Source of the DNA: Bdellovibrionales bacterium
GTDB lineage: Bacteria > Bdellovibrionota > Bdellovibrionia > Bdellovibrionales > UBA1609
Assembly: GCA_965261545.1 (NCBI GenBank)
Contig: CBDHDF010000007.1
Span: 256,001 to 320,000, forward strand
Direction of reading: 5' to 3'
DNA: 64,000 bases
The notes beneath the pieces were generated by a model. It was not told the origin of the DNA, did no database searches, and was given only the letters and a program-made list of their open reading frames with translations. The position numbers were made by a program, and so were the translations under genes. Positions 1 to 59,772 of the stretch are shown here, in pieces. How positions within the stretch are numbered: position 1 is the stretch's first letter; every line of letters begins with the position of its first letter.

Positions 1-793
1 GCAAAGGAAACTCTTCTGAACTCACCTTTGATTCATGCTGACGAAACTGGAGTGAATGTTAATGGGAAGAGGCTGTGGTTTCACCTCTTGTCCAATGATA
101 CTGTGGTTCTCTATCAGGTGGACGAAAAAAGAGGCGCAGAGGCTATGGATCGCATGGGAATTCTTCCAAAATACACAGGGATTGTTTGTCATGACCATTG
201 GAAACCTTATTATACATATACTTCCTGCATTCATGCCCTTTGCAATGCGCACCATTTAAGGGAGCTTCAAAGAGCTTGGGAGCAAGATGATCAAAAATGG
301 GCAAAAGAAATGAAGTCTCTTTTAGAGACAATAAACAAAGAGGTGCACGATACGCAGAACCAATGCCTTTCACAAGACCGAATTGAATATTACAAAGAGA
401 AATATCGAAATATTCTCTTCGAAGGGGAAAAGGAATCTCCATTAATGGAGAGGACAGAGAAAAAAAAGAAGGGAAAGGTTAAACAATCCAAATCTAGAAA
501 TTTACTAGATCGACTGAGAAACTTTGAAGATGATACCTTGCTCTTTATGAAGGACCCCATAGTTCCATTTACGAATAATATAGCAGAAAATGATCTGAGA
601 ATGACCAAAGTTCAGCAGAAAATATCTGGGTGCTTTCGTTCGTTGATGGGAGCCAAGACATTTTGTAGAAACCGAAGCTTTCTCCTGACTTGCCAGAAAA
701 ATGGCATAGAACCTAAAGATGCTCTAAATATGCTATTTCAAGGAAAACTTCCCTCATTTATGACTCGAATTCGCCCACCCCCTGAATAGTTAC
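1..793 (+). mobile_element. IS66-family element (single-ORF ISBst12-like), 3' part with right TIR; runs off the window start
   Basis: ORF to 789 has IS66 motifs HADETG, HDHWKPY, LCNAHHLREL, FTNNIAENDLR and KISGCFRS; ends ccccctgaatagttac (GTAA-type TIR). Confidence 0.93.
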
Positions 794-7189: not shown

Positions 7190-10100
7190 ATTCATGGGGG
7201 CGCCTTGCTTCCCCACCCACGCCCATGAATCTTATCTAGGCCCCCACTTCTTTGCACGAAGCAACTCGGTGGACAGCTTCGCTGGTCTATATAATTGGCC
7301 TCTTTTAGTTACTCTGGACTTTTGATGGTATTTTTGTCATGTATGATTCCGATACAATAAAGGATAAAGCAATAACATTATTGGAAGGTGATAAGATGAG
7401 TGGCCGTTGAATAGATTGGTAATTTTAATTCCGTGAAGTAACATGGTCTTGAGCTTTGGATCGAACCCACGCATGTACCTGCACTCTGAGTGTATGGACG
7501 TATAGTAAGTTGACCTATTTTCGCTTTAGAATTTATGGCAAAATCCCAAGGCTCTAGTTTTATCACCTTCTTTTTTTCTAACAGAAAGGAGGAGTCATGT
7601 GGATATTATTTATAGTTCTGTTTGTGGAATAGATGTTCATCAACATATGTTGATGTGTACGATTGTCAAAGTGGAAGACGGTAAGAAGAAGTTTTTCACA
7701 AAAGAGTTCAAGAATTTTCCAAAAAATTTTCCTAGAATGCGCTCTTGGATGAAGCCACATAAGGTTGAGAGAGTTCTTTTTGAGAGCACAGGGATTTATT
7801 GGAATTCTTTATACGATGATTTGACAGAAAAAGGTTATGAAGTAGATGTTATCAATGCCTTTCATGTCAAAAATATTACTGGTAAAAAAACTGACGTGTT
7901 GGATAGCCAGTGGATTGCAGAGCTTGGTGCTTGTGGTCTTCTAAGAGCTAGCTTCATTCCTCCACGTGAGATTCGTTCTATTAGACTTTTGGCTCGTTAT
8001 CGTACAAAAACGATCCGCCAAATATCTTCGGAACAAAATCGTATGTATAAGGTTCTTGAATATTCGCATTCGTTTAACATTCATGGGGGCGCCTTGCTTC
8101 CCCACCCACGCCCATGAATCTTATCTAGGCCCCCACTTCTTTGCACGAAGCAACTCGGTGGACAGCTTCGCTGGTCTATATAATTGGCCTCTTTTAGTTA
8201 CTCTGGACTTTTGATGGTATTTTTGTCATGTATGATTCCGATACAATAAAGGATAAAGCAATAACATTATTGGAAGGTGATAAGATGAGTGGCCGTTGAA
8301 TAGATTGGTAATTTTAATTCCGTGAAGTAACATGGTCTTGAGCTTTGGATCGAACCCACGCATGTACCTGCACTCTGAGTGTATGGACGTATAGTAAGTT
8401 GACCTATTTTCGCTTTAGAATTTATGGCAAAATCCCAAGGCTCTAGTTTTATCACCTTCTTTTTTTCTAACAGAAAGGAGGAGTCATGTGGATATTATTT
8501 ATAGTTCTGTTTGTGGAATAGATGTTCATCAACATATGTTGATGTGTACGATTGTCAAAGTGGAAGACGGTAAGAAGAAGTTTTTCACAAAAGAGTTCAA
8601 GAATTTTCCAAAAAATTTTCCTAGAATGCGCTCTTGGATAAAGCCACATAAGGTTGAGAGAGTTCTTTTTGAGAGCACAGGGATTTATTGGAATTCTTTA
8701 TACGATGATTTGACAGAAAAAGGTTATGAAGTAGATGTTATCAATGCCTTTCATGTCAAAAATATTACTGGTAAAAAAACTGACGTGTTGGATAGCCAGT
8801 GGATTGCAGAGCTTGGTGCTTGTGGTCTTCTAAGAGCTAGCTTCATTCCTCCACGTGAGATTCGTTCTATTAGACTTTTGGCTCGTTATCGTACAAAAAC
8901 GATCCGCCAAATATCTTCGGAACAAAATCGTATGTATAAGGTTCTTGAATATTCAGGCATTCGTTTAACCTATGCAATGTCTAAAGCTGACTGCGTATCT
9001 GGTATGGCCATGATTCGTGCCATAGCTAATGGAGAGAGATCAGTTTCTAAATTGATGTCTCTTGCCAGAGGGTCTTTACGTCAAAAGACCGAAGAATTTT
9101 CTTACGCCCTGTCGGGAAAGATGACGGAAGAAAATCGTTTTGTTCTTCAACGCATTCTTGATCGAATAGATTTTTTGAAAAAAGAATGCTCTCAAATTGA
9201 AGAAGAACTTTTCATTCGTATGAAACCCTATGAAAGGCAGTGGCATCTACTCCAGACTATACCTGGAATTGACGAATTAAGTGCAGCGCTTTTGATTGCA
9301 GAAATAGGAGGCAATGTGAAGTCTTTTAAAAATAAAGGAAATTTTTGCTCCTGGATGGGGATTTGCCCATCCAATAATGAGAGCGCAGGAAAAAAAGTCT
9401 TCACGAACGAGGAAAGCGAACACATATGTGAAATCGTTGGTATGTGAGATGGCCAATAGTGCTATTAAGACGAATTCACAATTCAAAGGCAAATACCAAT
9501 CACTTGTTATAAGGCGTGGGCACAAGAGATCAGTGATTGCCGTTGGTCACAAAATGATGGGAGTTGTTTATTCAGTCATAAGTAATGACACCCCCTACAA
9601 AGACCCTGGAATTGACTATGAAAAGCTCATGGTGAAAAAAAATGCACCAAGGTGGATTAGAGCGTTAAAAAAGTATGATTTCATGTAATGTAGGATGATT
9701 TAAAAACTCGGACATTTGAAAAAATTCGAAGAACGGATAGTGGATTCGTGCGTCCAAACTACCCCGGAGATTCATAGTAACCTATGCAATGTCTAAAGCT
9801 GACTGCGTATCTGGTATGGCCATGATTCGTGCCATAGCTAATGGAGAGAGATCAGTTTCTAAATTGATGTCTCTTGCCAGAGGGTCTTTACGTCAAAAGA
9901 CCGAAGAATTTTCTTACGCCCTGTCGGGAAAGATGACGGAAGAAAATCGTTTTGTTCTTCAACGCATTCTTGATCGAATAGATTTTTTGAAAAAAGAATG
10001 CTCTCAAATTGAAGAAGAACTTTTCATTCGTATGAAACCCTATGAAAGGCAGTGGCATCTACTCCAGACTATACCTGGAATTGACGAATTAAGTGCAGCG

Positions 10101-10593
10101 CTTTTGATTGCAGAAATAGGAGGCAATGTGAAGTCTTTTAAAAATAAAGGAAATTTTTGCTCCTGGATGGGGATTTGCCCATCCAATAATGAGAGCGCAG
10201 GAAAAAAAGTCTTCACGAACGAGGAAAGCGAACACATATGTGAAATCGTTGGTATGTGAGATGGCCAATAGTGCTATTAAGACGAATTCACAATTCAAAG
10301 GCAAATACCAATCACTTGTTATAAGGCGTGGGCACAAGAGATCAGTGATTGCCGTTGGTCACAAAATGATGGGAGTTGTTTATTCAGTCATAAGTAATGA
10401 CACCCCCTACAAAGACCCTGGAATTGACTATGAAAAGCTCATGGTGAAAAAAAATGCACCAAGGTGGATTAGAGCGTTAAAAAAGTATGATTTCATGTAA
10501 TGTAGGATGATTTAAAAACTCGGACATTTGAAAAAATTCGAAGAACGGATAGTGGATTCGTGCGTCCAAACTACCCCGGAGATTCATAGTAAA
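7190..10593 (+). mobile_element. IS110 copy A, interrupted at 8078/9782 by copy B
   Basis: Left end attcatgggggcgcc after gtaac; coding sequence resumes ctatgcaatg at 9782; right end ggagattcatagtaa. Confidence 0.9.
8079..9781 (+). mobile_element. IS110 copy B, self-inserted into copy A recombinase; A7 frameshift allele
   Basis: Junctions cgtttaac|attcatgg and catagtaac|ctatgc; ORFs 8488-9447 and 9377-9688. Confidence 0.9.
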
Positions 10594-10810
10594 CTACCCC
10601 GGAGATTCATAGTAACATTCATGGGGGCGCCTTGCTTCCCCACCCACGCCCATGAATCTTATCTAGGCCCCCACTTCTTTGCACGAAGCAACTCGGTGGA
10701 CAGCTTCGCTGGTCTATATAATTGGCCTCTTTTAGTTACTCTGGACTTTTGATGGTATTTTTGTCATGTATGATTCCGATACAATAAAGGATAAAGCAAT
10801 AACATTATTG

Positions 10811-10997
10811 GAAGGTGATAAGATGAGTGGCCGTTGAATAGATTGGTAATTTTAATTCCGTGAAGTAACATGGTCTTGAGCTTTGGATCGAACCCACGCA
10901 TGTACCTGCACTCTGAGTGTATGGACGTATAGTAAGTTGACCTATTTTCGCTTTAGAATTTATGGCAAAATCCCAAGGCTCTAGTTTTATCACCTTC
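10811..10997 (+). ncRNA. Putative IS110 bridge RNA (present in all six copies)
   Basis: Closing stem gaaggtgataaga/ttttatcaccttc; two stem-internal-loop-hairpin modules whose loops match the target (tgaatag, agtaac) and donor (atagtaa). Folded by eye; ends approximate. Confidence 0.7.
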
Positions 10998-11025
10998 TTT
11001 TTTTCTAACAGAAAGGAGGAGTCAT

Positions 11026-12228
11026 GTGGATATTATTTATAGTTCTGTTTGTGGAATAGATGTTCATCAACATATGTTGATGTGTACGATTGTCAAAGTG
11101 GAAGACGGTAAGAAGAAGTTTTTCACAAAAGAGTTCAAGAATTTTCCAAAAAATTTTCCTAGAATGCGCTCTTGGATGAAGCCACATAAGGTTGAGAGAG
11201 TTCTTTTTGAGAGCACAGGGATTTATTGGAATTCTTTATACGATGATTTGACAGAAAAAGGTTATGAAGTAGATGTTATCAATGCCTTTCATGTCAAAAA
11301 TATTACTGGTAAAAAAACTGACGTGTTGGATAGCCAGTGGATTGCAGAGCTTGGTGCTTGTGGTCTTCTAAGAGCTAGCTTCATTCCTCCACGTGAGATT
11401 CGTTCTATTAGACTTTTGGCTCGTTATCGTACAAAAACGATCCGCCAAATATCTTCGGAACAAAATCGTATGTATAAGGTTCTTGAATATTCAGGCATTC
11501 GTTTAACCTATGCAATGTCTAAAGCTGACTGCGTATCTGGTATGGCCATGATTCGTGCCATAGCTAATGGAGAGAGATCAGTTTCTAAATTGATGTCTCT
11601 TGCCAGAGGGTCTTTACGTCAAAAGACCGAAGAATTTTCTTACGCCCTGTCGGGAAAGATGACGGAAGAAAATCGTTTTGTTCTTCAACGCATTCTTGAT
11701 CGAATAGATTTTTTGAAAAAAGAATGCTCTCAAATTGAAGAAGAACTTTTCATTCGTATGAAACCCTATGAAAGGCAGTGGCATCTACTCCAGACTATAC
11801 CTGGAATTGACGAATTAAGTGCAGCGCTTTTGATTGCAGAAATAGGAGGCAATGTGAAGTCTTTTAAAAATAAAGGAAATTTTTGCTCCTGGATGGGGAT
11901 TTGCCCATCCAATAATGAGAGCGCAGGAAAAAAAAAGTCTTCACGAACGAGGAAAGCGAACACATATGTGAAATCGTTGGTATGTGAGATGGCCAATAGT
12001 GCTATTAAGACGAATTCACAATTCAAAGGCAAATACCAATCACTTGTTATAAGGCGTGGGCACAAGAGATCAGTGATTGCCGTTGGTCACAAAATGATGG
12101 GAGTTGTTTATTCAGTCATAAGTAATGACACCCCCTACAAAGACCCTGGAATTGACTATGAAAAGCTCATGGTGAAAAAAAATGCACCAAGGTGGATTAG
12201 AGCGTTAAAAAAGTATGATTTCATGTAA
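11026..12228 (+). CDS. IS110-family DEDD recombinase (400 aa)
   Basis: GIDVH, FESTGIYW, KKTDVLDSQWIA (DEDD); TIPGIDELSAALLIAEIG; NESAGK serine motif; RBS aaaggagg. Confidence 0.95.
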   Translation: MDIIYSSVCGIDVHQHMLMCTIVKVEDGKKKFFTKEFKNFPKNFPRMRSWMKPHKVERVLFESTGIYWNSLYDDLTEKGYEVDVINAFHVKNITGKKTDVLDSQWIAELGACGLLRASFIPPREIRSIRLLARYRTKTIRQISSEQNRMYKVLEYSGIRLTYAMSKADCVSGMAMIRAIANGERSVSKLMSLARGSLRQKTEEFSYALSGKMTEENRFVLQRILDRIDFLKKECSQIEEELFIRMKPYERQWHLLQTIPGIDELSAALLIAEIGGNVKSFKNKGNFCSWMGICPSNNESAGKKKSSRTRKANTYVKSLVCEMANSAIKTNSQFKGKYQSLVIRRGHKRSVIAVGHKMMGVVYSVISNDTPYKDPGIDYEKLMVKKNAPRWIRALKKYDFM

Positions 12229-12321
12229 TGTAGGATGATTTAAAAACTCGGACATTTGAAAAAATTCGAAGAACGGATAGTGGATTCGTGCGTCCAAACT
12301 ACCCCGGAGATTCATAGTAAC

Positions 12322-14026
12322 ATTCATGGGGGCGCCTTGCTTCCCCACCCACGCCCATGAATCTTATCTAGGCCCCCACTTCTTTGCACGAAGCAACTCG
12401 GTGGACAGCTTCGCTGGTCTATATAATTGGCCTCTTTTAGTTACTCTGGACTTTTGATGGTATTTTTGTCATGTATGATTCCGATACAATAAAGGATAAA
12501 GCAATAACATTATTGGAAGGTGATAAGATGAGTGGCCGTTGAATAGATTGGTAATTTTAATTCCGTGAAGTAACATGGTCTTGAGCTTTGGATCGAACCC
12601 ACGCATGTACCTGCACTCTGAGTGTATGGACGTATAGTAAGTTGACCTATTTTCGCTTTAGAATTTATGGCAAAATCCCAAGGCTCTAGTTTTATCACCT
12701 TCTTTTTTTCTAACAGAAAGGAGGAGTCATGTGGATATTATTTATAGTTCTGTTTGTGGAATAGATGTTCATCAACATATGTTGATGTGTACGATTGTCA
12801 AAGTGGAAGACGGTAAGAAGAAGTTTTTCACAAAAGAGTTCAAGAATTTTCCAAAAAATTTTCCTAGAATGCGCTCTTGGATGAAGCCACATAAGGTTGA
12901 GAGAGTTCTTTTTGAGAGCACAGGGATTTATTGGAATTCTTTATACGATGATTTGACAGAAAAAGGTTATGAAGTAGATGTTATCAATGCCTTTCATGTC
13001 AAAAATATTACTGGTAAAAAAACTGACGTGTTGGATAGCCAGTGGATTGCAGAGCTTGGTGCTTGTGGTCTTCTAAGAGCTAGCTTCATTCCTCCACGTG
13101 AGATTCGTTCTATTAGACTTTTGGCTCGTTATCGTACAAAAACGATCCGCCAAATATCTTCGGAACAAAATCGTATGTATAAGGTTCTTGAATATTCAGG
13201 CATTCGTTTAACCTATGCAATGTCTAAAGCTGACTGCGTATCTGGTATGGCCATGATTCGTGCCATAGCTAATGGAGAGAGATCAGTTTCTAAATTGATG
13301 TCTCTTGCCAGAGGGTCTTTACGTCAAAAGACCGAAGAATTTTCTTACGCCCTGTCGGGAAAGATGACGGAAGAAAATCGTTTTGTTCTTCAACGCATTC
13401 TTGATCGAATAGATTTTTTGAAAAAAGAATGCTCTCAAATTGAAGAAGAACTTTTCATTCGTATGAAACCCTATGAAAGGCAGTGGCATCTACTCCAGAC
13501 TATACCTGGAATTGACGAATTAAGTGCAGCGCTTTTGATTGCAGAAATAGGAGGCAATGTGAAGTCTTTTAAAAATAAAGGAAATTTTTGCTCCTGGATG
13601 GGGATTTGCCCATCCAATAATGAGAGCGCAGGAAAAAAAAAGTCTTCACGAACGAGGAAAGCGAACACATATGTGAAATCGTTGGTATGTGAGATGGCCA
13701 ATAGTGCTATTAAGACGAATTCACAATTCAAAGGCAAATACCAATCACTTGTTATAAGGCGTGGGCACAAGAGATCAGTGATTGCCGTTGGTCACAAAAT
13801 GATGGGAGTTGTTTATTCAGTCATAAGTAATGACACCCCCTACAAAGACCCTGGAATTGACTATGAAAAGCTCATGGTGAAAAAAAATGCACCAAGGTGG
13901 ATTAGAGCGTTAAAAAAGTATGATTTCATGTAATGTAGGATGATTTAAAAACTCGGACATTTGAAAAAATTCGAAGAACGGATAGTGGATTCGTGCGTCC
14001 AAACTACCCCGGAGATTCATAGTAAC
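12322..14026 (+). mobile_element. IS110 copy D, intact, head-to-tail with copy C
   Basis: Junction ttcatagtaac|attcatggggg at 12311-12332; right end joins tattcagggggtg of the IS66 TIR. Confidence 0.93.
12731..13933 (+). CDS. IS110-family DEDD recombinase (400 aa)
   Basis: Same protein as 11026-12228. Confidence 0.95.
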   Translation: MDIIYSSVCGIDVHQHMLMCTIVKVEDGKKKFFTKEFKNFPKNFPRMRSWMKPHKVERVLFESTGIYWNSLYDDLTEKGYEVDVINAFHVKNITGKKTDVLDSQWIAELGACGLLRASFIPPREIRSIRLLARYRTKTIRQISSEQNRMYKVLEYSGIRLTYAMSKADCVSGMAMIRAIANGERSVSKLMSLARGSLRQKTEEFSYALSGKMTEENRFVLQRILDRIDFLKKECSQIEEELFIRMKPYERQWHLLQTIPGIDELSAALLIAEIGGNVKSFKNKGNFCSWMGICPSNNESAGKKKSSRTRKANTYVKSLVCEMANSAIKTNSQFKGKYQSLVIRRGHKRSVIAVGHKMMGVVYSVISNDTPYKDPGIDYEKLMVKKNAPRWIRALKKYDFM

Positions 14027-14254
14027 TATTCAGGGGGTGGGCGAATTCGAGTCATAAATGAGGGAAGTTTTCCTTGAAATAGCATATTTAGAGCATCTTT
14101 AGGTTCTATGCAAAATTTCACCTAGTTTGACCCACCCAATTTCACCTGGTTTGACCCACCCAATTTCACGAAGTTTGACCCACTGAATTTCACCAAACAT
14201 TGACCCACTTAGATCTTCATAGATATTCTTTCTGCGCTACGCATTAACGAGGAG

Positions 14255-15778
14255 GTGTCTATGGGCAAACAAGGTAAGAAAAAAGGAGCAAGAATGATCA
14301 ACAATATTAAGAAATACATAGAGCTTGGACTCAGTTCGAGACAAATAGCTCGAGCTATGGGTGTTAGTCGGAACACTGTGAAGAAGTATGTGAAGGATAG
14401 TCCCGGAGGCCCTAACAGCCGCTCAAAGGGGTCGCATGGGCCCTACCAAGCCCCATGGTCATCCAAGGTGAATTGGACAGATGTTCGCCTCAAGCAAAGC
14501 CTAGGGACTCAATTGGCTCATTACTGGGAGCGACATATTCAGTCCGAGATTGACGGTGTGAGTTATCTTTCTTTTTGGAGAGAGTTTCGTCGGAGGCACC
14601 CAAGTATAAAGCTTGATATGCACCAGACATTCACCCCTGGTGAACGGAGTGAGTTTGACTATAAGGGAAAAGACTCTTGTTTTGGCTATACAGATGCCAA
14701 GACTGGGGAGTTCATCCCATGTCGATTATTTGGAATGATACTTCCATCGAGTCAGTTTTTCTTTCCATGCGCCACATTAACAGAGCAGCGGGAAGATGTT
14801 TTTTCCTCCATAGCTTCTGGTTTTGAGTTTTTTGGTGGTGTGACCGGAACCATTGCTTTTGATAACGCAAAGGTTCAAGTGACAAGAGCTGATACTTATG
14901 ACCCCGATATTAACTCTGAGTTTCACCTCTTGTGTGATCACTACAATGTGGCTCCTTTGGCGATGAGGCCATCTCGCCCCAAAGACAAGAGTCTTATCGA
15001 AAATACCCTTGGAGTCTTTTGGCGCTGGTCTTGGCCCCAGATAAGAGAGCGGCAAATGTATTCTCTAGCAGACATCAACGCTGAGTTGAAGCATTTGGCA
15101 GCTATTTTCAATGATCGTATTCAAAAAAAGTATGGGTTGAGTCGTCGACAGAAGTTTGAATCTTTTGAGAAGTCAAAATTGAATCCTCTTCCTGAAAGAC
15201 GCTATGAGAGTGGATTCTGGAAGCATTCCAAGGTTCATCCGGATTGTCACATTCAATATAACTACAATTTTTACTCTGTTCCTTATAAGCATCGCGGCAA
15301 GAAGTTAGATATTCGTATTAGCCAACAATGCTTGGAGGTTTATTCAGAATTAGAGCGGGTGGCGATACATCACATCCCCCAGGGCAGTCGAGGGCGCTAC
15401 TTTACGACAAAATCTCATCTCCCTGAGTCCCACCGGGCCATTTTAGAGCAAACGCCACAAAATGTACTTAAAGAGGCATCAAGCCTTGGAGAAAGCATTC
15501 ACAAAGTTGCCGAGCGGCTTATCAAAGAGCCTCGCCATCCGCTTATGTATCTTCGTCGTGTTCAGGGGATACTCAATCTAAGAAAACGGTATTCAACAGC
15601 TTCTTTGGAGCAGGCTTGCTCATTTTTTGTAGATGCAGCTTTAAGTGACATTAGGGTTCGTGGAGTTGAGAAAGTTATTTCAGCAAAAAGTCATCGAAAA
15701 GAGGAGCCAAGAGTCTGCCGTCAACCTAATGAAAATTTAAGAGGTTCAGAGCACTGGGAGAATGCTTGCCGCCACTAA
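14255..15778 (+). CDS. istA: IS21 transposase IstA
   Basis: N-terminal HTH, PGERSEFDY, FDNAK, PKDKSLIE, YSVPY. Confidence 0.92.
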   Translation: MSMGKQGKKKGARMINNIKKYIELGLSSRQIARAMGVSRNTVKKYVKDSPGGPNSRSKGSHGPYQAPWSSKVNWTDVRLKQSLGTQLAHYWERHIQSEIDGVSYLSFWREFRRRHPSIKLDMHQTFTPGERSEFDYKGKDSCFGYTDAKTGEFIPCRLFGMILPSSQFFFPCATLTEQREDVFSSIASGFEFFGGVTGTIAFDNAKVQVTRADTYDPDINSEFHLLCDHYNVAPLAMRPSRPKDKSLIENTLGVFWRWSWPQIRERQMYSLADINAELKHLAAIFNDRIQKKYGLSRRQKFESFEKSKLNPLPERRYESGFWKHSKVHPDCHIQYNYNFYSVPYKHRGKKLDIRISQQCLEVYSELERVAIHHIPQGSRGRYFTTKSHLPESHRAILEQTPQNVLKEASSLGESIHKVAERLIKEPRHPLMYLRRVQGILNLRKRYSTASLEQACSFFVDAALSDIRVRGVEKVISAKSHRKEEPRVCRQPNENLRGSEHWENACRH

Positions 15779-15859
15779 TCACATAGCCCCGGTGGGTGGT
15801 TCTCAACCACCTAACGGGTCATTTTGACCTCCATAAGAGAGGTCGTATAGGAGAAGAAA

Positions 15860-16588
15860 ATGATTAAACAAACAGAAAATTTATTAGAGATATTAAAAAT
15901 GAGGGGAGTTTTAGCAACCTTGAGCCAGAGGCTCAAAGAAGCTGAGGAGCAGGATCTTGGTTACGAGGACTTTCTAAATGTCATCTTTGAGGACGAAAAA
16001 ATCCATCGTGAAAATCAGAAGGTCTCAAGACTTATCAAAAGAGCAGCTTTGCAGCAAAAAGCAAGCCTTGAGGCCTTTGAAACCAAATCCAACCGAGGAG
16101 TCGATCGAAGAGTTTTGAGTGATCTAGCCCTTATGAGATTTGCTCAAAGAGGTCAAAATATAATTATCTCTGGCCCAACGGGTGTTGGAAAGTCATATTT
16201 GGCTTGTGCCATAGGTAATCACGCCTGTCGCCAAGGTTTTTCCACTCAGTTCTTCAGAATGAATACTCTTGTTGAAAAATTCAACTTAGAAAGAGCCCAG
16301 GGGACATATCTAAACTTCCTTAAAAGGCTAAAATCAGTCTCGATACTTGTGTTGGATGATTTTGGTATCAAGCCCCTTACCTCTAACCAATATCAAGACC
16401 TTTACGATGTGATTGATGAACGAGGCCCTGACCTGAGCCTCATTCTTACAACCCAACTTCCAATAAAAAATTGGAGTGAAGTCATTGAGGATCCCATCGT
16501 TTGTGAAGCTATTATGGATCGCATAACCTCTCAAGCTATCAAAATAGCCATGTCTGGAAGCTCATTTAGGCAGAGAAAGACGATTTAA
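15860..16588 (+). CDS. istB: IS21 ATPase IstB
   Basis: Walker A GPTGVGKS, Walker B LVLDDFG, AIMDRI. Confidence 0.93.
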   Translation: MIKQTENLLEILKMRGVLATLSQRLKEAEEQDLGYEDFLNVIFEDEKIHRENQKVSRLIKRAALQQKASLEAFETKSNRGVDRRVLSDLALMRFAQRGQNIIISGPTGVGKSYLACAIGNHACRQGFSTQFFRMNTLVEKFNLERAQGTYLNFLKRLKSVSILVLDDFGIKPLTSNQYQDLYDVIDERGPDLSLILTTQLPIKNWSEVIEDPIVCEAIMDRITSQAIKIAMSGSSFRQRKTI

Positions 16589-16664
16589 GGAGAATCCATG
16601 CAAAGGCAGACCTTGGAAGACACCATCGGGAGACACTCCATCGGAACTATTGAATCATGTACCC

Positions 16665-16762
16665 GCCAGTTATCCACAAAATTTACCCACGGCAGCGCTG
16701 CGTTGATAGACATCGGGGTCACAGACGCAGCGTCACCATGGATAAATTTGTGGATAACTGGC
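16665..16762. repeat. Conserved 98-bp hairpin with DnaA-box arms (copy in IS21 type 1)
   Basis: gccagttatccacaaaatttacccac...atggataaatttgtggataactggc. Confidence 0.8.
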
Positions 16763-18697
16763 TCGCTATTCTCTGCCATTTTGAGCAATGGATTCAACAT
16801 CCCCATTGAAAAACCCTCCATTGAAACCTCAGAAATGGGGAGGGTCGAGATTCTCAATGACAAAGTGGCCAATTTTAGTTGGCATCTAACATTCTGGCAA
16901 ATAAGCCTTAACCCACCGTTGGGACATCGTGACATTGAGGGTGTAAAAGTTACTGAGTCAGCAGAAAAAAGAAGGTTTAAATTGACAAAGTTTGAGCCAC
17001 CGTGAAATTCAAAATTGGACCTCAAATTGACTGACTGAGGGGTGGGTCAAACTTCGTGAAATTCAGTGGGTCAAACTCGTGAAATTCAGCATCTATGCCA
17101 TTTTTCTGGCAAGTCAGGAGAAAGCTTCGGTTTCTACAAAATGTCTTGGCTCCCATCAACGAACGAAAGCACCCAGATATTTTCTGCTGAACTTTGGTCA
17201 TTCTCAGATCATTTTCTGCTATATTATTCGTAAATGGAACTATGGGGTCCTTCATAAATAGCAAGGTATCATCTTCAAAGTTTCTCAGTCGATCTAGTAA
17301 ATTTCTAGATTTGGATTGTTTAACCTTTCCCTTCTTTTTTTTCTCTGTCCTCTCCATTAATGGAGATTCCTTTTCCCCTTCGAAGAGAATATTTCGATAT
17401 TTCTCTTTGTAATATTCAATTCGGTCTTGTGAAAGGCATTGGTTCTGCGTATCGTGCACCTCTTTGTTTATTGTCTCTAAAAGAGACTTCATTTCTTTTG
17501 CCCATTTTTGATCATCTTGCTCCCAAGCTCTTTGAAGCTCCCTTAAATGGTGCGCATTGCAAAGGGCATGAATGCAGGAAGTATATGTATAATAAGGTTT
17601 CCAATGGTCATGACAAACAATCCCTGTGTATTTTGGAAGAATTCCCATGCGATCCATAGCCTCTGCGCCTCTTTTTTCGTCCACCTGATAGAGAACCACA
17701 GTATCATTGGACAAGAGGTGAAACCACAGCCTCTTCCCATTAACATTCACTCCAGTTTCGTCAGCATGAATCAAAGGTGAGTTCAGAAGAGTTTCCTTTG
17801 CCCACTCCTCAAAAGCTTCCAGAGCCTCAAATGTTAGCTGACAATTAAAATGCCCCACCGTCGCCAATGAAAAGTGGCCACTTTTCAGAGGAGGACCTAT
17901 GGTGATTTTTGGCATTGTCAACCGAGACGCATATAATCAATTGATATTACTCATAAAAAGGCTCCGAGCTGATAAGAACTCCTTTTGGGTTCTTGTCGAC
18001 CTGGAAAGGGGCTCCGTGTTGGAGAGTCCTTCCATGACAGCCTATTCAGGTTCCATATTTGTCATTTGTAGACTGTTTCTGGATTTCAATGAGGTTAAAT
18101 ATATAGTCAAGAAAAGCCTGTTTAGGCTGTGCCCATTTTCTAAAGTATTTAAATTCCACAAGATTCCAACATTTGCCTCAATTTTCATGGAATTTCTTTT
18201 TGAAGACAGGCTTCCCTTAAAGCCGTCGCCAATTAAAATGTCCCACTTTCAATATGGAGGTTGTCGCCAATGAAAAGTGACCAATCTTCAGGGAGTGTTC
18301 AAATACTAGACAATGAAGTCTCTTCTTCTGATATAGATACTAAGCTCACAGAGTCCCTCCCTTTTGCAACTCAAAAGGTTAGCAATGAGGAGGATCTTAT
18401 GATTAGTCAATACACTTTCGGCCGCATTCGTGACCTGAGTCACAGTGGTAAAAATAAGACAGAAATATCTCGTGAATTAGGGATCAATCGTAAGACGGTG
18501 CGCAAGTACTGTAAGTCCAACACCCCACCGAAGTACAAGGCGAGGTCCAAAAGAACTCGCCCAGATCCCCTTAATGGATATATGGATCGGGTGCATAGGT
18601 GTTCGTGGTTTTTTTCTAATTTTAATTCCGAATTAATGGAAATACTTTTCAAGCCTCCTTTTTTACATAGAGGGAAGTGGGCGATTTATAAATATTT

Positions 18698-18800
18698 GTA
18701 ACTGTTCAGGGGGTAGCAGAGTTCAAGAGGTAAATTGCTCCTTCTTACCAGAGAAAATATAAATCTCTCTCTGTAAACTCATGCCCCCCTGAATAGATAC
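18698..18800. mobile_element. 103-bp IS66-derived MITE
   Basis: Ends gtaactgttcaggggg / ccccctgaatagatac; 8-bp TSD aaatattt; absent from the paralogous site near 3780. Confidence 0.9.
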
Positions 18801-55417: not shown

Positions 55418-57125
55418 ATTCATGGGGGCGCCTTGCTTCCCCACCCACGCCCATGAATCTTATCTAGGCCCCCACTTCTTTGCACGAAGCAACTCGGTGG
55501 ACAGCTTCGCTGGTCTATATAATTGGCCTCTTTTAGTTACTCTGGACTTTTGATGGTATTTTTGTCATGTATGATTCCGATACAATAAAGGATAAAGCAA
55601 TAACATTATTGGAAGGTGATAAGATGAGTGGCCGTTGAATAGATTGGTAATTTTAATTCCGTGAAGTAACATGGTCTTGAGCTTTGGATCGAACCCACGC
55701 ATGTACCTGCACTCTGAGTGTATGGACGTATAGTAAGTTGACCTATTTTCGCATTATTTTAGAATTTATGGCAAAATCCCAAGGCTCTAGTTTTATCACC
55801 TTCTTTTTTTCTAACAGAAAGGAGGAGTCATGTGGATATTATTTATAGTTCTGTTTGTGGAATAGATGTTCATCAACATATGTTGATGTGTACGATTGTC
55901 AAAGTGGAAGACGGTAAGAAGAAGTTTTTCACAAAAGAGTTCAAGAATTTTCCAAAAAATTTTCCTAGAATGCGCTCTTGGATGAAGCCACATAAGGTTG
56001 AGAGAGTTCTTTTTGAGAGCACAGGGATTTATTGGAATTCTTTATACGATGATTTGACAGAAAAAGGTTATGAAGTAGATGTTATCAATGCCTTTCATGT
56101 CAAAAATATTACTGGTAAAAAAACTGACGTGTTGGATAGCCAGTGGATTGCAGAGCTTGGTGCTTGTGGTCTTCTAAGAGCTAGCTTCATTCCTCCACGT
56201 GAGATTCGTTCTATTAGACTTTTGGCTCGTTATCGTACAAAAACGATCCGCCAAATATCTTCGGAACAAAATCGTATGTATAAGGTTCTTGAATATTCAG
56301 GCATTCGTTTAACCTATGCAATGTCTAAAGCTGACTGCGTATCTGGTATGGCCATGATTCGTGCCATAGCTAATGGAGAGAGATCAGTTTCTAAATTGAT
56401 GTCTCTTGCCAGAGGGTCTTTACGTCAAAAGACCGAAGAATTTTCTTACGCCCTGTCGGGAAAGATGACGGAAGAAAATCGTTTTGTTCTTCAACGCATT
56501 CTTGATCGAATAGATTTTTTGAAAAAAGAATGCTCTCAAATTGAAGAAGAACTTTTCATTCGTATGAAACCCTATGAAAGGCAGTGGCATCTACTCCAGA
56601 CTATACCTGGAATTGACGAATTAAGTGCAGCGCTTTTGATTGCAGAAATAGGAGGCAATGTGAAGTCTTTTAAAAATAAAGGAAATTTTTGCTCCTGGAT
56701 GGGGATTTGCCCATCCAATAATGAGAGCGCAGGAAAAAAAGTCTTCACGAACGAGGAAAGCGAACACATATGTGAAATCGTTGGTATGTGAGATGGCCAA
56801 TAGTGCTATTAAGACGAATTCACAATTCAAAGGCAAATACCAATCACTTGTTATAAGGCGTGGGCACAAGAGATCAGTGATTGCCGTTGGTCACAAAATG
56901 ATGGGAGTTGTTTATTCAGTCATAAGTAATGACACCCCCTACAAAGACCCTGGAATTGACTATGAAAAGCTCATGGTGAAAAAAAATGCACCAAGGTGGA
57001 TTAGAGCGTTAAAAAAGTATGATTTCATGTAATGTAGGATGATTTAAAAACTCGGACATTTGAAAAAATTCGAAGAACGGATAGTGGATTCGTGCGTCCA
57101 AACTACCCCGGAGATTCATAGTAAC
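55418..57125 (+). mobile_element. IS110 copy E (A7 frameshift; 5-bp insertion near 55753)
   Basis: Same ends as copy C; ORFs 55832-56791 and 56721-57032. Confidence 0.92.
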
Positions 57126-57177
57126 TCTTTGAAACGATGTGGAGTCATTTTGTTCCTTATTGAGTTTAGTTCGTAAC

Positions 57178-58881
57178 ATTCATGGGGGCGCCTTGCTTCC
57201 CCACCCACGCCCATGAATCTTATCTAGGCCCCCACTTCTTTGCACGAAGCAACTCGGTGGACAGCTTCGCTGGTCTATATAATTGGCCTCTTTTAGTTAC
57301 TCTGGACTTTTGATGGTATTTTTGTCATGTATGATTCCGATACAATAAAGGATAAAGCAATAACATTATTGGAAGGTGATAAGATGAGTGGCCGTTGAAT
57401 AGATTGGTAATTTTAATTCCGTGAAGTAACATGGTCTTGAGCTTTGGATCGAACCCACGCATGTACCTGCACTCTGAGTGTATGGACGTATAGTAAGTTG
57501 ACCTATTTTCGCTTTAGAATTTATGGCAAAATCCCAAGGCTCTAGTTTTATCACCTTCTTTTTTTCTAACAGAAAGGAGGAGTCATGTGGATATTATTTA
57601 TAGTTCTGTTTGTGGAATAGATGTTCATCAACATATGTTGATGTGTACGATTGTCAAAGTGGAAGACGGTAAGAAGAAGTTTTTCACAAAAGAGTTCAAG
57701 AATTTTCCAAAAAATTTTCCTAGAATGCGCTCTTGGATGAAGCCACATAAGGTTGAGAGAGTTCTTTTTGAGAGCACAGGGATTTATTGGAATTCTTTAT
57801 ACGATGATTTGACAGAAAAAGGTTATGAAGTAGATGTTATCAATGCCTTTCATGTCAAAAATATTACTGGTAAAAAAACTGACGTGTTGGATAGCCAGTG
57901 GATTGCAGAGCTTGGTGCTTGTGGTCTTCTAAGAGCTAGCTTCATTCCTCCACGTGAGATTCGTTCTATTAGACTTTTGGCTCGTTATCGTACAAAAACG
58001 ATCCGCCAAATATCTTCGGAACAAAATCGTATGTATAAGGTTCTTGAATATTCAGGCATTCGTTTAACCTATGCAATGTCTAAAGCTGACTGCGTATCTG
58101 GTATGGCCATGATTCGTGCCATAGCTAATGGAGAGAGATCAGTTTCTAAATTGATGTCTCTTGCCAGAGGGTCTTTACGTCAAAAGACCGAAGAATTTTC
58201 TTACGCCCTGTCGGGAAAGATGACGGAAGAAAATCGTTTTGTTCTTCAACGCATTCTTGATCGAATAGATTTTTTGAAAAAAGAATGCTCTCAAATTGAA
58301 GAAGAACTTTTCATTCGTATGAAACCCTATGAAAGGCAGTGGCATCTACTCCAGACTATACCTGGAATTGACGAATTAAGTGCAGCGCTTTTGATTGCAG
58401 AAATAGGAGGCAATGTGAAGTCTTTTAAAAATAAAGGAAATTTTTGCTCCTGGATGGGGATTTGCCCATCCAATAATGAGAGCGCAGGAAAAAAAGTCTT
58501 CACGAACGAGGAAAGCGAAACACATATGTGAAATCGTTGGTATGTGAGATGGCCAATAGTGCTATTAAGACGAATTCACAATTCAAAGGCAAATACCAAT
58601 CACTTGTTATAAGGCGTGGGCACAAGAGATCAGTGATTGCCGTTGGTCACAAAATGATGGGAGTTGTTTATTCAGTCATAAGTAATGACACCCCCTACAA
58701 AGACCCTGGAATTGACTATGAAAAGCTCATGGTGAAAAAAAATGCACCAAGGTGGATTAGAGCGTTAAAAAAGTATGATTTCATGTAATGTAGGATGATT
58801 TAAAAACTCGGACATTTGAAAAAATTCGAAGAACGGATAGTGGATTCGTGCGTCCAAACTACCCCGGAGATTCATAGTAAC
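57178..58881 (+). mobile_element. IS110 copy F (frameshifted)
   Basis: Same ends; right end joins tattcagggggtg of the IS66 left TIR. Confidence 0.92.
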
Positions 58882-59772
58882 TATTCAGGGGGTGCCGCAT
58901 TAATTCGAACAATTTTTTTAAAAAAAGTATAAAAATTCTTGACAAGTTTTTGAAGCAAACGACCTCTTTCATTTGTTCTTTATCGAATATGTTCCTGCAT
59001 ATGCCTTAAACTCTCTGAGAGCCATAGTATTGAAAGATTGTGAAACATAGGTCGCGGGGGGCACTTCTCATTCCTTTTGCTTCTTAGAACGAATCCTAGT
59101 GCATTTTTTTTAATGAAAAAAAGGCATGTTAATATTTTCATAAGGTAAGTATGAAAATAGAAATATTGACGTGTCTTCAGCCATAAATAAAATCAGGAAG
59201 CTTCTTAAGAAAGAGAAGTCCCTTTCTCCCGCTTTTATTGTGGCCATTGAGTTGTTGATCAAAATCATCACTATTCTAGTAAATCAAAAAAAATTAAATA
59301 GTCAAAACAGTAGTATTGCCCCTTCTCAAGATCCGAATGGCCCTAAAAAGAAACCTAAGGAAGAAACTGGTAAGAAGCCAGGAGGACAACCCGGACACGA
59401 AGGAGCTACTTTAAAACCCGTGGATACTCCAGACAAGGTGGAGTTCATTTCTATTAATAAAGAGGAACTTCCTCCAGGTGATTACATTTCTTCTGGAGTT
59501 GAAAAGCGTCAAGTATTTGAGGTAGACCTTTCTGTGCATGTCACGGAGTATCAAGGAGAAATCCTCGAAGACCAAGATGGGAATCAGTGGGTTGCAGGTT
59601 TTCCAGAAGGAATCAATAACCCAACTCAATATGGCCCTTCTGTGAAAGCTCACTCAGTTTATATGTCCCAGTTTCAGTTAATCCCTCATCTTCGAGTCGC
59701 AAGTTACTTTAATCAATGGGGTCTATCGCTTGCTGGATCTACGGTACACAATTTTAACAAATCTGCCTTTGA
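58877..59772 (+). pseudogene. IS66 copy 2, left TIR and 5' half of transposase
   Basis: gtaactattcagggggtg; LNSQNSSIAPSQD, KPGGQPGHEG.TL, RQVFE, QYGPSVKA. Confidence 0.88.

Follow-up and report, generated by a model that had tools for sequence, protein, structure and literature searches.

The question raised by this locus is whether the non-coding left end of an IS110-family insertion sequence (IS) encodes a bridge RNA and, if so, which strand of the DNA each of its guides reads. The locus lies in a 64,000-nucleotide (nt) stretch from a Bdellovibrionales bacterium (assembly GCA_965261545.1, contig CBDHDF010000007.1, positions 256,001 to 320,000), here called the window, whose coordinates are used throughout. 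An earlier note, made from the sequence letters and their reading frames, had proposed such an RNA gene and suggested that it is programmed against an IS66 terminal repeat. From sequence comparison, we put the probability at about 0.86 that positions 10810-10998 are the bridge RNA gene of an active, multi-copy IS110-family element with a guide order reversed relative to that of IS621. The proposal of a bridge RNA gene was supported by a conserved RNA structure, by guides that covary with the DNA around each element, and by the Pfam domains and catalytic residues of the adjacent recombinase. Coordinates of all features are given in Table 1.

For a detailed characterization of the RNA structure, 13 homologous upstream regions of related recombinase genes were aligned (A2) and a consensus was calculated with RNAalifold. 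The consensus contains four helices (P1, P2, P2b and P3), in which 19 of 24 pairs show compensatory change. A covariance model (R1) built from this alignment gave 40 matches when run on 81 sources, and another 80 metagenome loci yielded 34. All 74 matches are on the + strand and located immediately upstream of a recombinase open reading frame (ORF). Among 36 distinct sequences, 87.3% of the cells were paired compared with 63.9% after shuffling, and none of 500 shuffles was as high. Two-sided changes were found in 22 of the 24 pairs. When the partner was slid by 1-3 columns, 32-46% of the cells were paired.

The closing stem P1 comprises 14 base pairs (10810/11-10824 with 10984-10997), occurs in the minimum free energy (MFE) structure as well as in the constrained fold, and shows compensatory changes in relatives at 7 of 7 modelled pairs; the earlier note had placed it correctly at 10811-10823 with 10985-10997. 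The same note had described two modules, each consisting of a stem, an internal loop and a hairpin. This applies to the loop-1 module, whose predicted stem (ggccgt with atggtc) agrees with the family consensus and has compensatory pairs. The second module, in contrast, is a three-way junction closed by P3, in the family consensus as well as in both folds. Thus, the stem suggested for loop 2 (ggatcgaac with gttgacc) had to be given up: gttgacc is the 5′ half of P5, and cgaaccc is an unpaired conserved motif.

The three strings proposed as guides, TGAATAG (10835-10841), AGTAAC (10864-10869) and ATAGTAA (10929-10935), are located at the expected positions and are all unpaired in the consensus fold. 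The 5′ strand of loop 1 is complementary to AAC/TATTCA at 8 of 9 positions and to ATC/TATTCA at 9 of 9 (the slash marks the insertion point). At the end of its 3′ strand, the bases AU (10870-10871) are the first two bases of the left end, and 10864-10871 is identical to the left junction AGTAAC/AT, resembling the extension of a handshake guide. A 7-mer match anywhere in 187 nt was obtained by chance in 1076 of 5000 shuffles and an 8-mer match in 618 of 5000. As chance matches of this length are not rare, the argument for guides rests on their position in homologous loops and on the following tests across the family.

These tests covered 67 distinct loci, were independent of any alignment and compared each RNA with its own flanks and with those of the other loci. 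In 33 of 54 loci, at least 8 nt of the loop-1 3′ strand recur in the upstream region of the same locus, and the mean longest shared string was 7.76 nt for cognate compared with 4.92 nt for non-cognate combinations (0 of 3000 resamples). These matches stop at the junction of flank and left end, reaching 1-3 nt into the latter. For the part of the RNA that holds the junction 3′ strand and the region downstream of the ORF, the corresponding values were 8.46 and 6.34 nt (n = 56; 0 of 3000), and the match coincides with the end of the conserved TTTC-type motif by which the right end is recognized. Reverse-complement controls of both tests were flat. In all 8 elements inspected, the variable dinucleotide before TAA in the right end is that of the junction 3′ strand, with five different dinucleotides represented (GT, GC, AT, AG and GG). 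The 5′ strand of loop 1 matched the reverse complement of core plus right flank at 5.12 of 9 positions compared with 4.48 for non-cognate flanks (n = 49; 0 of 5000); the best scores were reached by L184 (9/9) and L096 (8/9), the present element scoring 8/9. This signal of the top-strand target guide was seen only with loop-restricted, register-limited scoring, and whole-RNA longest-common-substring tests against the reverse complements of either side gave no enrichment. The check recommended at the outset, a covariance model of homologous left ends combined with a test of guide-target covariation, yielded 3′-strand guides that follow flanks and ends. As read from these tests, the guide order, with 3′ strands equal to left flank and right end, is reversed relative to IS621 and ISEc21, both here and across the clade.

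Some further loci, from outside the window, deserve mention. The left flank of L154 resembles the right-end tip of an L146-type relative (…TATTTTCGAAGCAG), both being metagenome loci; related IS110 elements may target each other's ends. In L069 (1200-1300 and downstream of the ORF), the flanks are inverted repeats of each other, and the element sits in the middle of the palindrome and has no right-end motif of the usual type.

The element that holds the RNA gene is of the expected kind. With the left end taken to begin after GTAAC and the right end to include GTAAC, intact copies are tripartite, consisting of a non-coding left end of 409 nt (10617-11025, the length noted before), an ORF of 400 amino acids (aa) and a right end of 93 nt. 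The recombinase matches both IS110 domains of Pfam (PF01548, 4.8e-23; PF02371, 4e-21), and its matches in the PDB are distant (IS621, E 2.7e-15; ISCro4, E 1.5e-13). Its catalytic positions (Asp, Glu, Asp, Asp and Ser) can be aligned with those of IS621, and an alignment of 40 relatives shows little or no variation at them. Of 7269 candidates in a protein search, 4690 had E <= 1e-20; most of these are 45-51% identical to the recombinase, and identities of 67-80% are reached by a few. The source genome (4.3 Mb, 11 contigs) has 46 protein-level matches, and among the matches listed nine are full-length and identical. Of 40 related genomes searched, two gave a match with E <= 1e-30, both at 32-33% identity. 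A scan of genome contigs with the single recombinase protein gave no match, and a repeat of the scan with an alignment (A1) gave matches.

Both ends of the element also carry repeats. The right copy of an 8-bp subterminal inverted repeat (AGATTCAT) is separated from the tip of the right end by 6 nt, and the inverse copy is found at position 36 of the left end. Such repeats, of 7-26 bp and at left-end positions 32-38, were found in 7 of 13 loci listed (the first 12 and the present element; 20 loci were usable). Short direct repeats of ATTCAT are present at both ends.

The target is the terminal repeat of an IS66-family element, as had been suspected. Terminal repeats of IS66 elements start with GTAA, and insertion of these elements gives 8-bp duplications. 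The target element has a length of 1715 bp, is bounded by terminal inverted repeats of 18 bp without mismatch (GTAACTATTCAGGGGGTG) and flanked by a duplication of 8 bp (TTTTACTC), and contains a single ORF of 478 aa with the domains DDE_Tnp_IS66 (PF03050, 1.6e-49) and DUF6444. Insertion takes place between GTAAC and TATTCA, 5 bp inside the terminal repeat and in one orientation; both ends of the IS66 element are used, with the IS110 right end always towards the interior of the repeat. That target sites would be visible in the window itself proved correct, with exact sites at 783-793, 14022-14032 and 58877-58887. Two sites with one mismatch, at 18698 and 18790, are empty.

An exact-string search of the genome revealed 43 left-end and 32 right-end junctions. 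TAAC precedes all 43 left ends (41 GTAAC, 2 TTAAC), and the flanks are otherwise unrelated. The right-end junctions lead into TATTCAGGG in 15 cases, into another left end in 10 and elsewhere in 7, four of the latter starting with TAT or TAC. The genome has 48 TATTCAGGGGG sites, of which 14 are occupied and 2 are of another type. The empty sites comprise 18 that have GTAAC and 14 that have GTATC or CTATC. Occupancy is therefore 14 of 32 for GTAAC compared with 0 of 14 for (G/C)TATC (Fisher p = 0.0038).

The position of the crossover can be narrowed down with a relative present in four copies. Its left flanks end with CTAA and its right end with GTTAA, its right flanks start with A or T and its left end with C, so that strand exchange must lie within TAA. 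The third base of this TAA is changed in the GTATC sites, which are all empty, and this suggests AA as the core. With the A-to-T change beside the crossover, 0 of 14 sites are occupied although one of the guides fits them better; the contacts that decide would accordingly be those made by the core and by the bottom-strand guide.

Two other elements near the target sites were noted. A miniature element of approximately 105 bp with IS66-like ends (GTATCTATTCAGGGGGG ... CCCCCTGAACAGTTAC) is located at 18698-18800. It has about 10 genomic copies, none of which is occupied by the IS110 element, and its ends make up most of the empty TATC sites. We also considered the end of an IS21-family element as the target at copy D. 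This was rejected, as the IS21 unit starts at 14109 and lies inside an IS66 copy, one end of which is the sequence at 14022-14108. About 20 further copies or fragments of the IS21-family element are present in the genome.

On the basis of work on IS621, ISEc21 and IS1111 members, the RNA would bind the 400-aa DEDD/serine recombinase and pair with the target as well as with the circular junction of right and left end, in each case with both DNA strands. Strand exchange would take place in a short core inside TAA, probably AA. The guides for the bottom strand are located 3′ of each hairpin, with a handshake-like extension, and the top-strand target guide 5′. Such a layout would correspond to the geometry of IS621 if the DNA site were rotated by 180 degrees while the genes for RNA and recombinase kept their direction.

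The copies in the window form head-to-tail and nested arrays, which may follow from the same target logic. The right end finishes with AGTAAC, and the right junction after insertion, AGTAAC/TATTCA, keeps all bases read by the two target guides but one. Each insertion would thereby rebuild a usable target at the right junction, and such a regenerated target would explain the head-to-tail copies. A right end mimicking the left target would be a simple route to local amplification. Off-target insertions are in line with this. The site at which copy B entered copy A is TTTAAC/CTATGCA. On contig C10 (minus strand, near 86399), a copy is inserted in the bridge RNA gene of another copy (GTATAGTAA; …GTATGGACGTATAGTAAC/ATTCATGG), exactly after the DNA encoding the donor 3′ guide, which indicates that guide-coding DNA acts as a decoy target.

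As to the individual copies, copy A lacks 2 bp at 8060-8070 (…gaatattc^gcattc…), 13 bp upstream of the entry point of copy B. The 52 nt between copies E and F (57126-57177) repeat the 30-nt left flank of copy E; flank and element of copy E seem to have been duplicated together.

It is conceivable that the tandem and nested copies are artefacts of long-read assembly and do not reflect repeated insertion into a regenerated target. The copies are nearly identical, their homopolymer lengths vary, and no contig matched to 10380-10820 (all from one sample, which may be the source of the assembly) spans a junction with 31 letters on both sides. We nevertheless consider an artefact unlikely, as head-to-tail junctions account for 10 of the 32 right-end junctions genome-wide and occur on 3 contigs, and the sequences of nested and off-target junctions are distinct. 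Moreover, tandem repeats are described as by-products of an IS110 element in the laboratory, CazIS110-1 from Caloranaerobacter azorensis (bioRxiv 10.1101/2025.10.25.684509). There, element tandems arose in 3 of 96 colonies as transient by-products of a plasmid assay, whereas here they are present in the assembly itself.

Several observations weigh against a bridge RNA gene with reversed guides. At the second core position, the A of the target faces an A in the 5′ target guide, which fits the unused GTATC sites perfectly. In relatives, the mean complementarity to the right flank is weak, many of these being single insertions in metagenome contigs. The donor 5′ guide has no signal across the family, neither in ungapped (5.66 cognate compared with 5.69 non-cognate) nor in gapped local scoring (4.02 compared with 4.00). 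The present element has the best gapped score of 51 loci for this guide (11 matches, one gap, two mismatches), and four of the 11 matches fall in an ACC(C/A)(C/A) motif that relatives keep whatever their left ends. The match of cccacgcatgt to the donor at 9 of 11 positions, to which the earlier note had drawn attention, was thus counted correctly, but its CCCA belongs to this conserved motif. The alignments used to count pairs were fitted to the covariance model, which biases them towards the structure. The MFE of 10800-11025 has a modest z-score (−1.47), and the unconstrained MFE structure pairs part of loop 1 differently; the family fold of copy C, with P2 forced, has −50.6 kcal/mol compared with −52.3 kcal/mol for the MFE structure and is thus 1.7 kcal/mol costlier. 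An Rfam scan of 10400-12400 with E up to 10 gave only chance-level matches to unrelated families. Finally, the recombinase frame is broken in 21 of 35 copies by an A-run at 11925-11935, which adjoins the aligned catalytic Ser in all genomic copies. The run is A9 in 14 copies, which have the intact 400-aa frame, A7 in 18 and A8 in 3. These frameshifts could be due to homopolymer sequencing errors, to decay or to slippage-based control of expression.

The apparent reversal might also arise from mis-assigned loops, ends or strands, in which case the bridge RNA would have the ordinary order of IS621. Left halves of target and donor are nearly equal in the present element (AAGTAAC and TAGTAAC), so copy C alone cannot separate the two loops, and the published guide layouts of other IS110-group elements stand in figures, outside our comparison. 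In relatives whose flanks and ends differ, however, loop 1 tracks the flank and loop 2 the right end, and the IS621-like assignments were flat on the same loci: the 5′ strand of loop 1 scored 3.25 compared with 3.15 and 5.06 compared with 4.83 against the left flank, and its 3′ strand 4.49 compared with 4.54 against the reverse-complemented right flank. Orientation was set by the recombinase gene, as in the published papers. We therefore regard an ordinary order as very improbable, in agreement with the earlier suggestion that the order is flipped. That the region is nothing more than a leader of the recombinase mRNA and that the matches are DNA-level subterminal repeats bound by the recombinase, for which the 8-bp inverted repeat, the ATTCAT repeats and the frequency of chance 7-mer matches could be cited, is hardly credible, since four helices keep their pairing through two-sided changes, indicating selection on an RNA, the matching strings vary with the flank and right end of each element in the same unpaired strands, and homologous systems use such RNAs in the experiments of PMC11208160 and PMC11187229.

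Table 1. Location of the features of the window referred to in the text (a slash within a sequence marks a junction)
Feature	Position	Strand	Remarks
Bridge RNA gene	10810..10998	+	Limits given by closing stem P1; from folds, covariance model and pair statistics
Target-binding module	10829..10875	+	P2 GGCCGU with AUGGUC (10829-34 with 10870-75), inner hairpin P2b (10844-50 with 10855-60); compensatory pairs
Donor-binding module	10878..10981	+	P3 (10878-86 with 10973-81) around P4 (10900-12 with 10916-28) and P5 (10937-49 with 10956-68)
Loop-1 5′ strand UGAAUAGAU	10835..10843	+	Putative target guide, complementary to top strand of core and right target
Loop-1 3′ strand AAGUAAC+AU	10863..10871	+	AAGUAAC equals top strand of left target and core; AU equals start of left end
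Junction 5′ strand, conserved ACCCA motif and CGCAUGU	10887..10903	+	Candidate donor guide against start of left end
Junction 3′ strand AUAGUAA	10929..10935	+	Sequence of right-end tip; covaries with right ends in relatives
IS110-family element, copy C	10617..12321	+	1705 bp; from direct-repeat period of 1705 bp, junction strings and sequence ruler
Non-coding left end, copy C	10617..11025	+	409 nt
Subterminal inverted repeat (8 bp), left copy ATGAATCT	10652..10659	+	Partner AGATTCAT at 12308-12315
Recombinase gene	11026..12228	+	400 aa; GTG start after AGGAGG
Right end, copy C	12229..12321	+	93 nt, finishing ...AGATTCATAGTAAC
Copy A	7190-8078 and 9782-10592	+	In two parts, with copy B (8079-9781) nested between them
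Duplicate of right-end tip	10593..10616	+	24 nt, between copies A and C
Copy D	12322..14026	+	Head-to-tail with copy C; junction GTAAC/ATTCATG
Copies E and F	55418-57125 and 57178-58881	+	F abuts IS66 terminal repeat; occupied site 58877-58887
Empty target	783..793	-	Right end of intact 1715-bp IS66-family element
Occupied target, IS66-family repeat GTAACTATTCAGGGGGTG	14022..14039	+	GTAAC common to end of copy D; exact site 14022-14032
IS21-family element	14109..17092		2984 bp; IstA-like 14255-15778, IstB 15860-16588; inside IS66-family copy

The left end upstream of the RNA gene contains two further sequences that recur in the genome. A 65-nt segment (10695-10759) is found at about 70 other places with approximately 95% identity, within a different repeat of about 1157 bp, which itself occurs in tandem runs (e.g. 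contig C2 at 876332, 877489 and 878646). The segment contains TATAAT at 10716-10721 and, in the 1157-bp repeat, is located before the start of an ORF; both elements may thus share a promoter or leader module. At its outer tip, the left end begins with a 41-nt palindrome (10617-10657), ATTCATGGGGGCG...CGCCCATGAAT, the start of which resembles the interior of the IS66 repeat, TATTCAGGGGGTG. This left-end hairpin also occurs as seven solo copies in the genome, for example on contig C6 near 99935. Some are bounded by GTAAC...GTTAC and one has identical 8 nt on both sides. They may be footprints, miniature elements or captured targets.

With a reversed order across a clade of thousands of members, the IS621 layout would not be general for upstream-encoded bridge RNAs. 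This matters for the automatic prediction of guides and for the choice of orthologues for engineering. In addition, one genome with dozens of insertions as well as empty and near-miss sites provides a natural readout of targeting rules. We tentatively extend the interpretation to a clade of recombinases of about 400 aa, giving it slightly less than an even chance: its members would have an upstream bridge RNA with a site polarity inverted relative to IS621 and ISEc21, a 5′ top-strand guide, a 3′ bottom-strand guide with extension, a multi-loop donor module and subterminal inverted repeats. Judged by size, this clade may be the subgroup that holds IS110 itself. If so, the strand cleaved first would be the opposite one relative to the gene.

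Insertion into the terminal repeat of another transposon has parallels. IS4321 and IS5075 reportedly target terminal repeats of the Tn21 family, and IS1383 is said to target the inverted repeats of IS1384 (both according to reference lists). These elements resemble the present one in using one position and one orientation inside the terminal repeat of another transposon, and differ in the family of the host element, which here is IS66.

[quoted passage not shown] The present system shares with IS621 an RNA that is encoded in the left end and precedes a DEDD/Tnp recombinase gene, the sequence of target module first and donor module second, two unpaired strands per module, one for each DNA strand, which meet at a short common core, and 3′ strands with 1-2 extra bases matching the other DNA partner, like handshake guides. 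In contrast to IS621, the guides of each loop stand in reversed order, the donor strands are located in a three-way junction and not in a simple internal loop, the closing stem encloses both modules, and the core lies in TAA and not in CT. The recombinase is distant (E 2.7e-15 over two aligned stretches; 400 aa compared with a 328-residue chain). A scan of 10480-11100, which holds the tandem junction, for a junction promoter, with a simple consensus that may not be that of the host, gave no + strand site.

The seekRNA of ISEc21 likewise comes from an upstream non-coding region and directs insertion into another insertion sequence, but has the complement of the bottom strand 5′ of that of the top strand, which is the order of IS621 and opposite to the present one (PMC11187229). 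A reversed order was not found described for any bridge RNA encoded upstream in the literature text searched, which included PMC11208160, 10.64898/2026.10.21.760802, 10.64898/2026.03.19.712850, 10.64898/2026.08.14.744561 and 10.1101/2025.10.25.684509, figures and preprint supplements standing outside it. However, the system is of a known kind. In four IS1111 members, the complement of the top strand precedes that of the bottom strand (PMC11187229), and the present order is that of these seekRNAs, in an RNA encoded upstream. The earlier description as a new bridge recombinase pair therefore holds for the bridge RNA system and overstates its novelty, the reversed order being already in print for IS1111 seekRNAs.

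Among the IS1111 seekRNAs, those of ISEc11, ISPa11 and ISKpn4 have the top-strand complement at the 5′ position (PMC11187229). IS1111 members have subterminal inverted repeats and multi-loop donor strands (Durrant et al., PMC11208160); the group criterion for the repeats is 7-17 bp, compared with 8 bp here. They differ in that their guide RNA is encoded downstream of the recombinase gene, whereas it is located upstream in the present element, whose right end comprises only 93 nt, and in the size of their recombinases (330-350 aa compared with 400 aa; PMC11187229). With 400 aa, the present recombinase lies within the range of 395-455 aa given for the subgroup holding IS110 itself (PMC11187229), a likeness in size. 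The mixture of IS110-like and IS1111-like traits bears on the relation of both groups: if the clade has the properties proposed above, it would combine the gene order of the IS110 type with the RNA logic of the IS1111 type and would form an evolutionary link between them.

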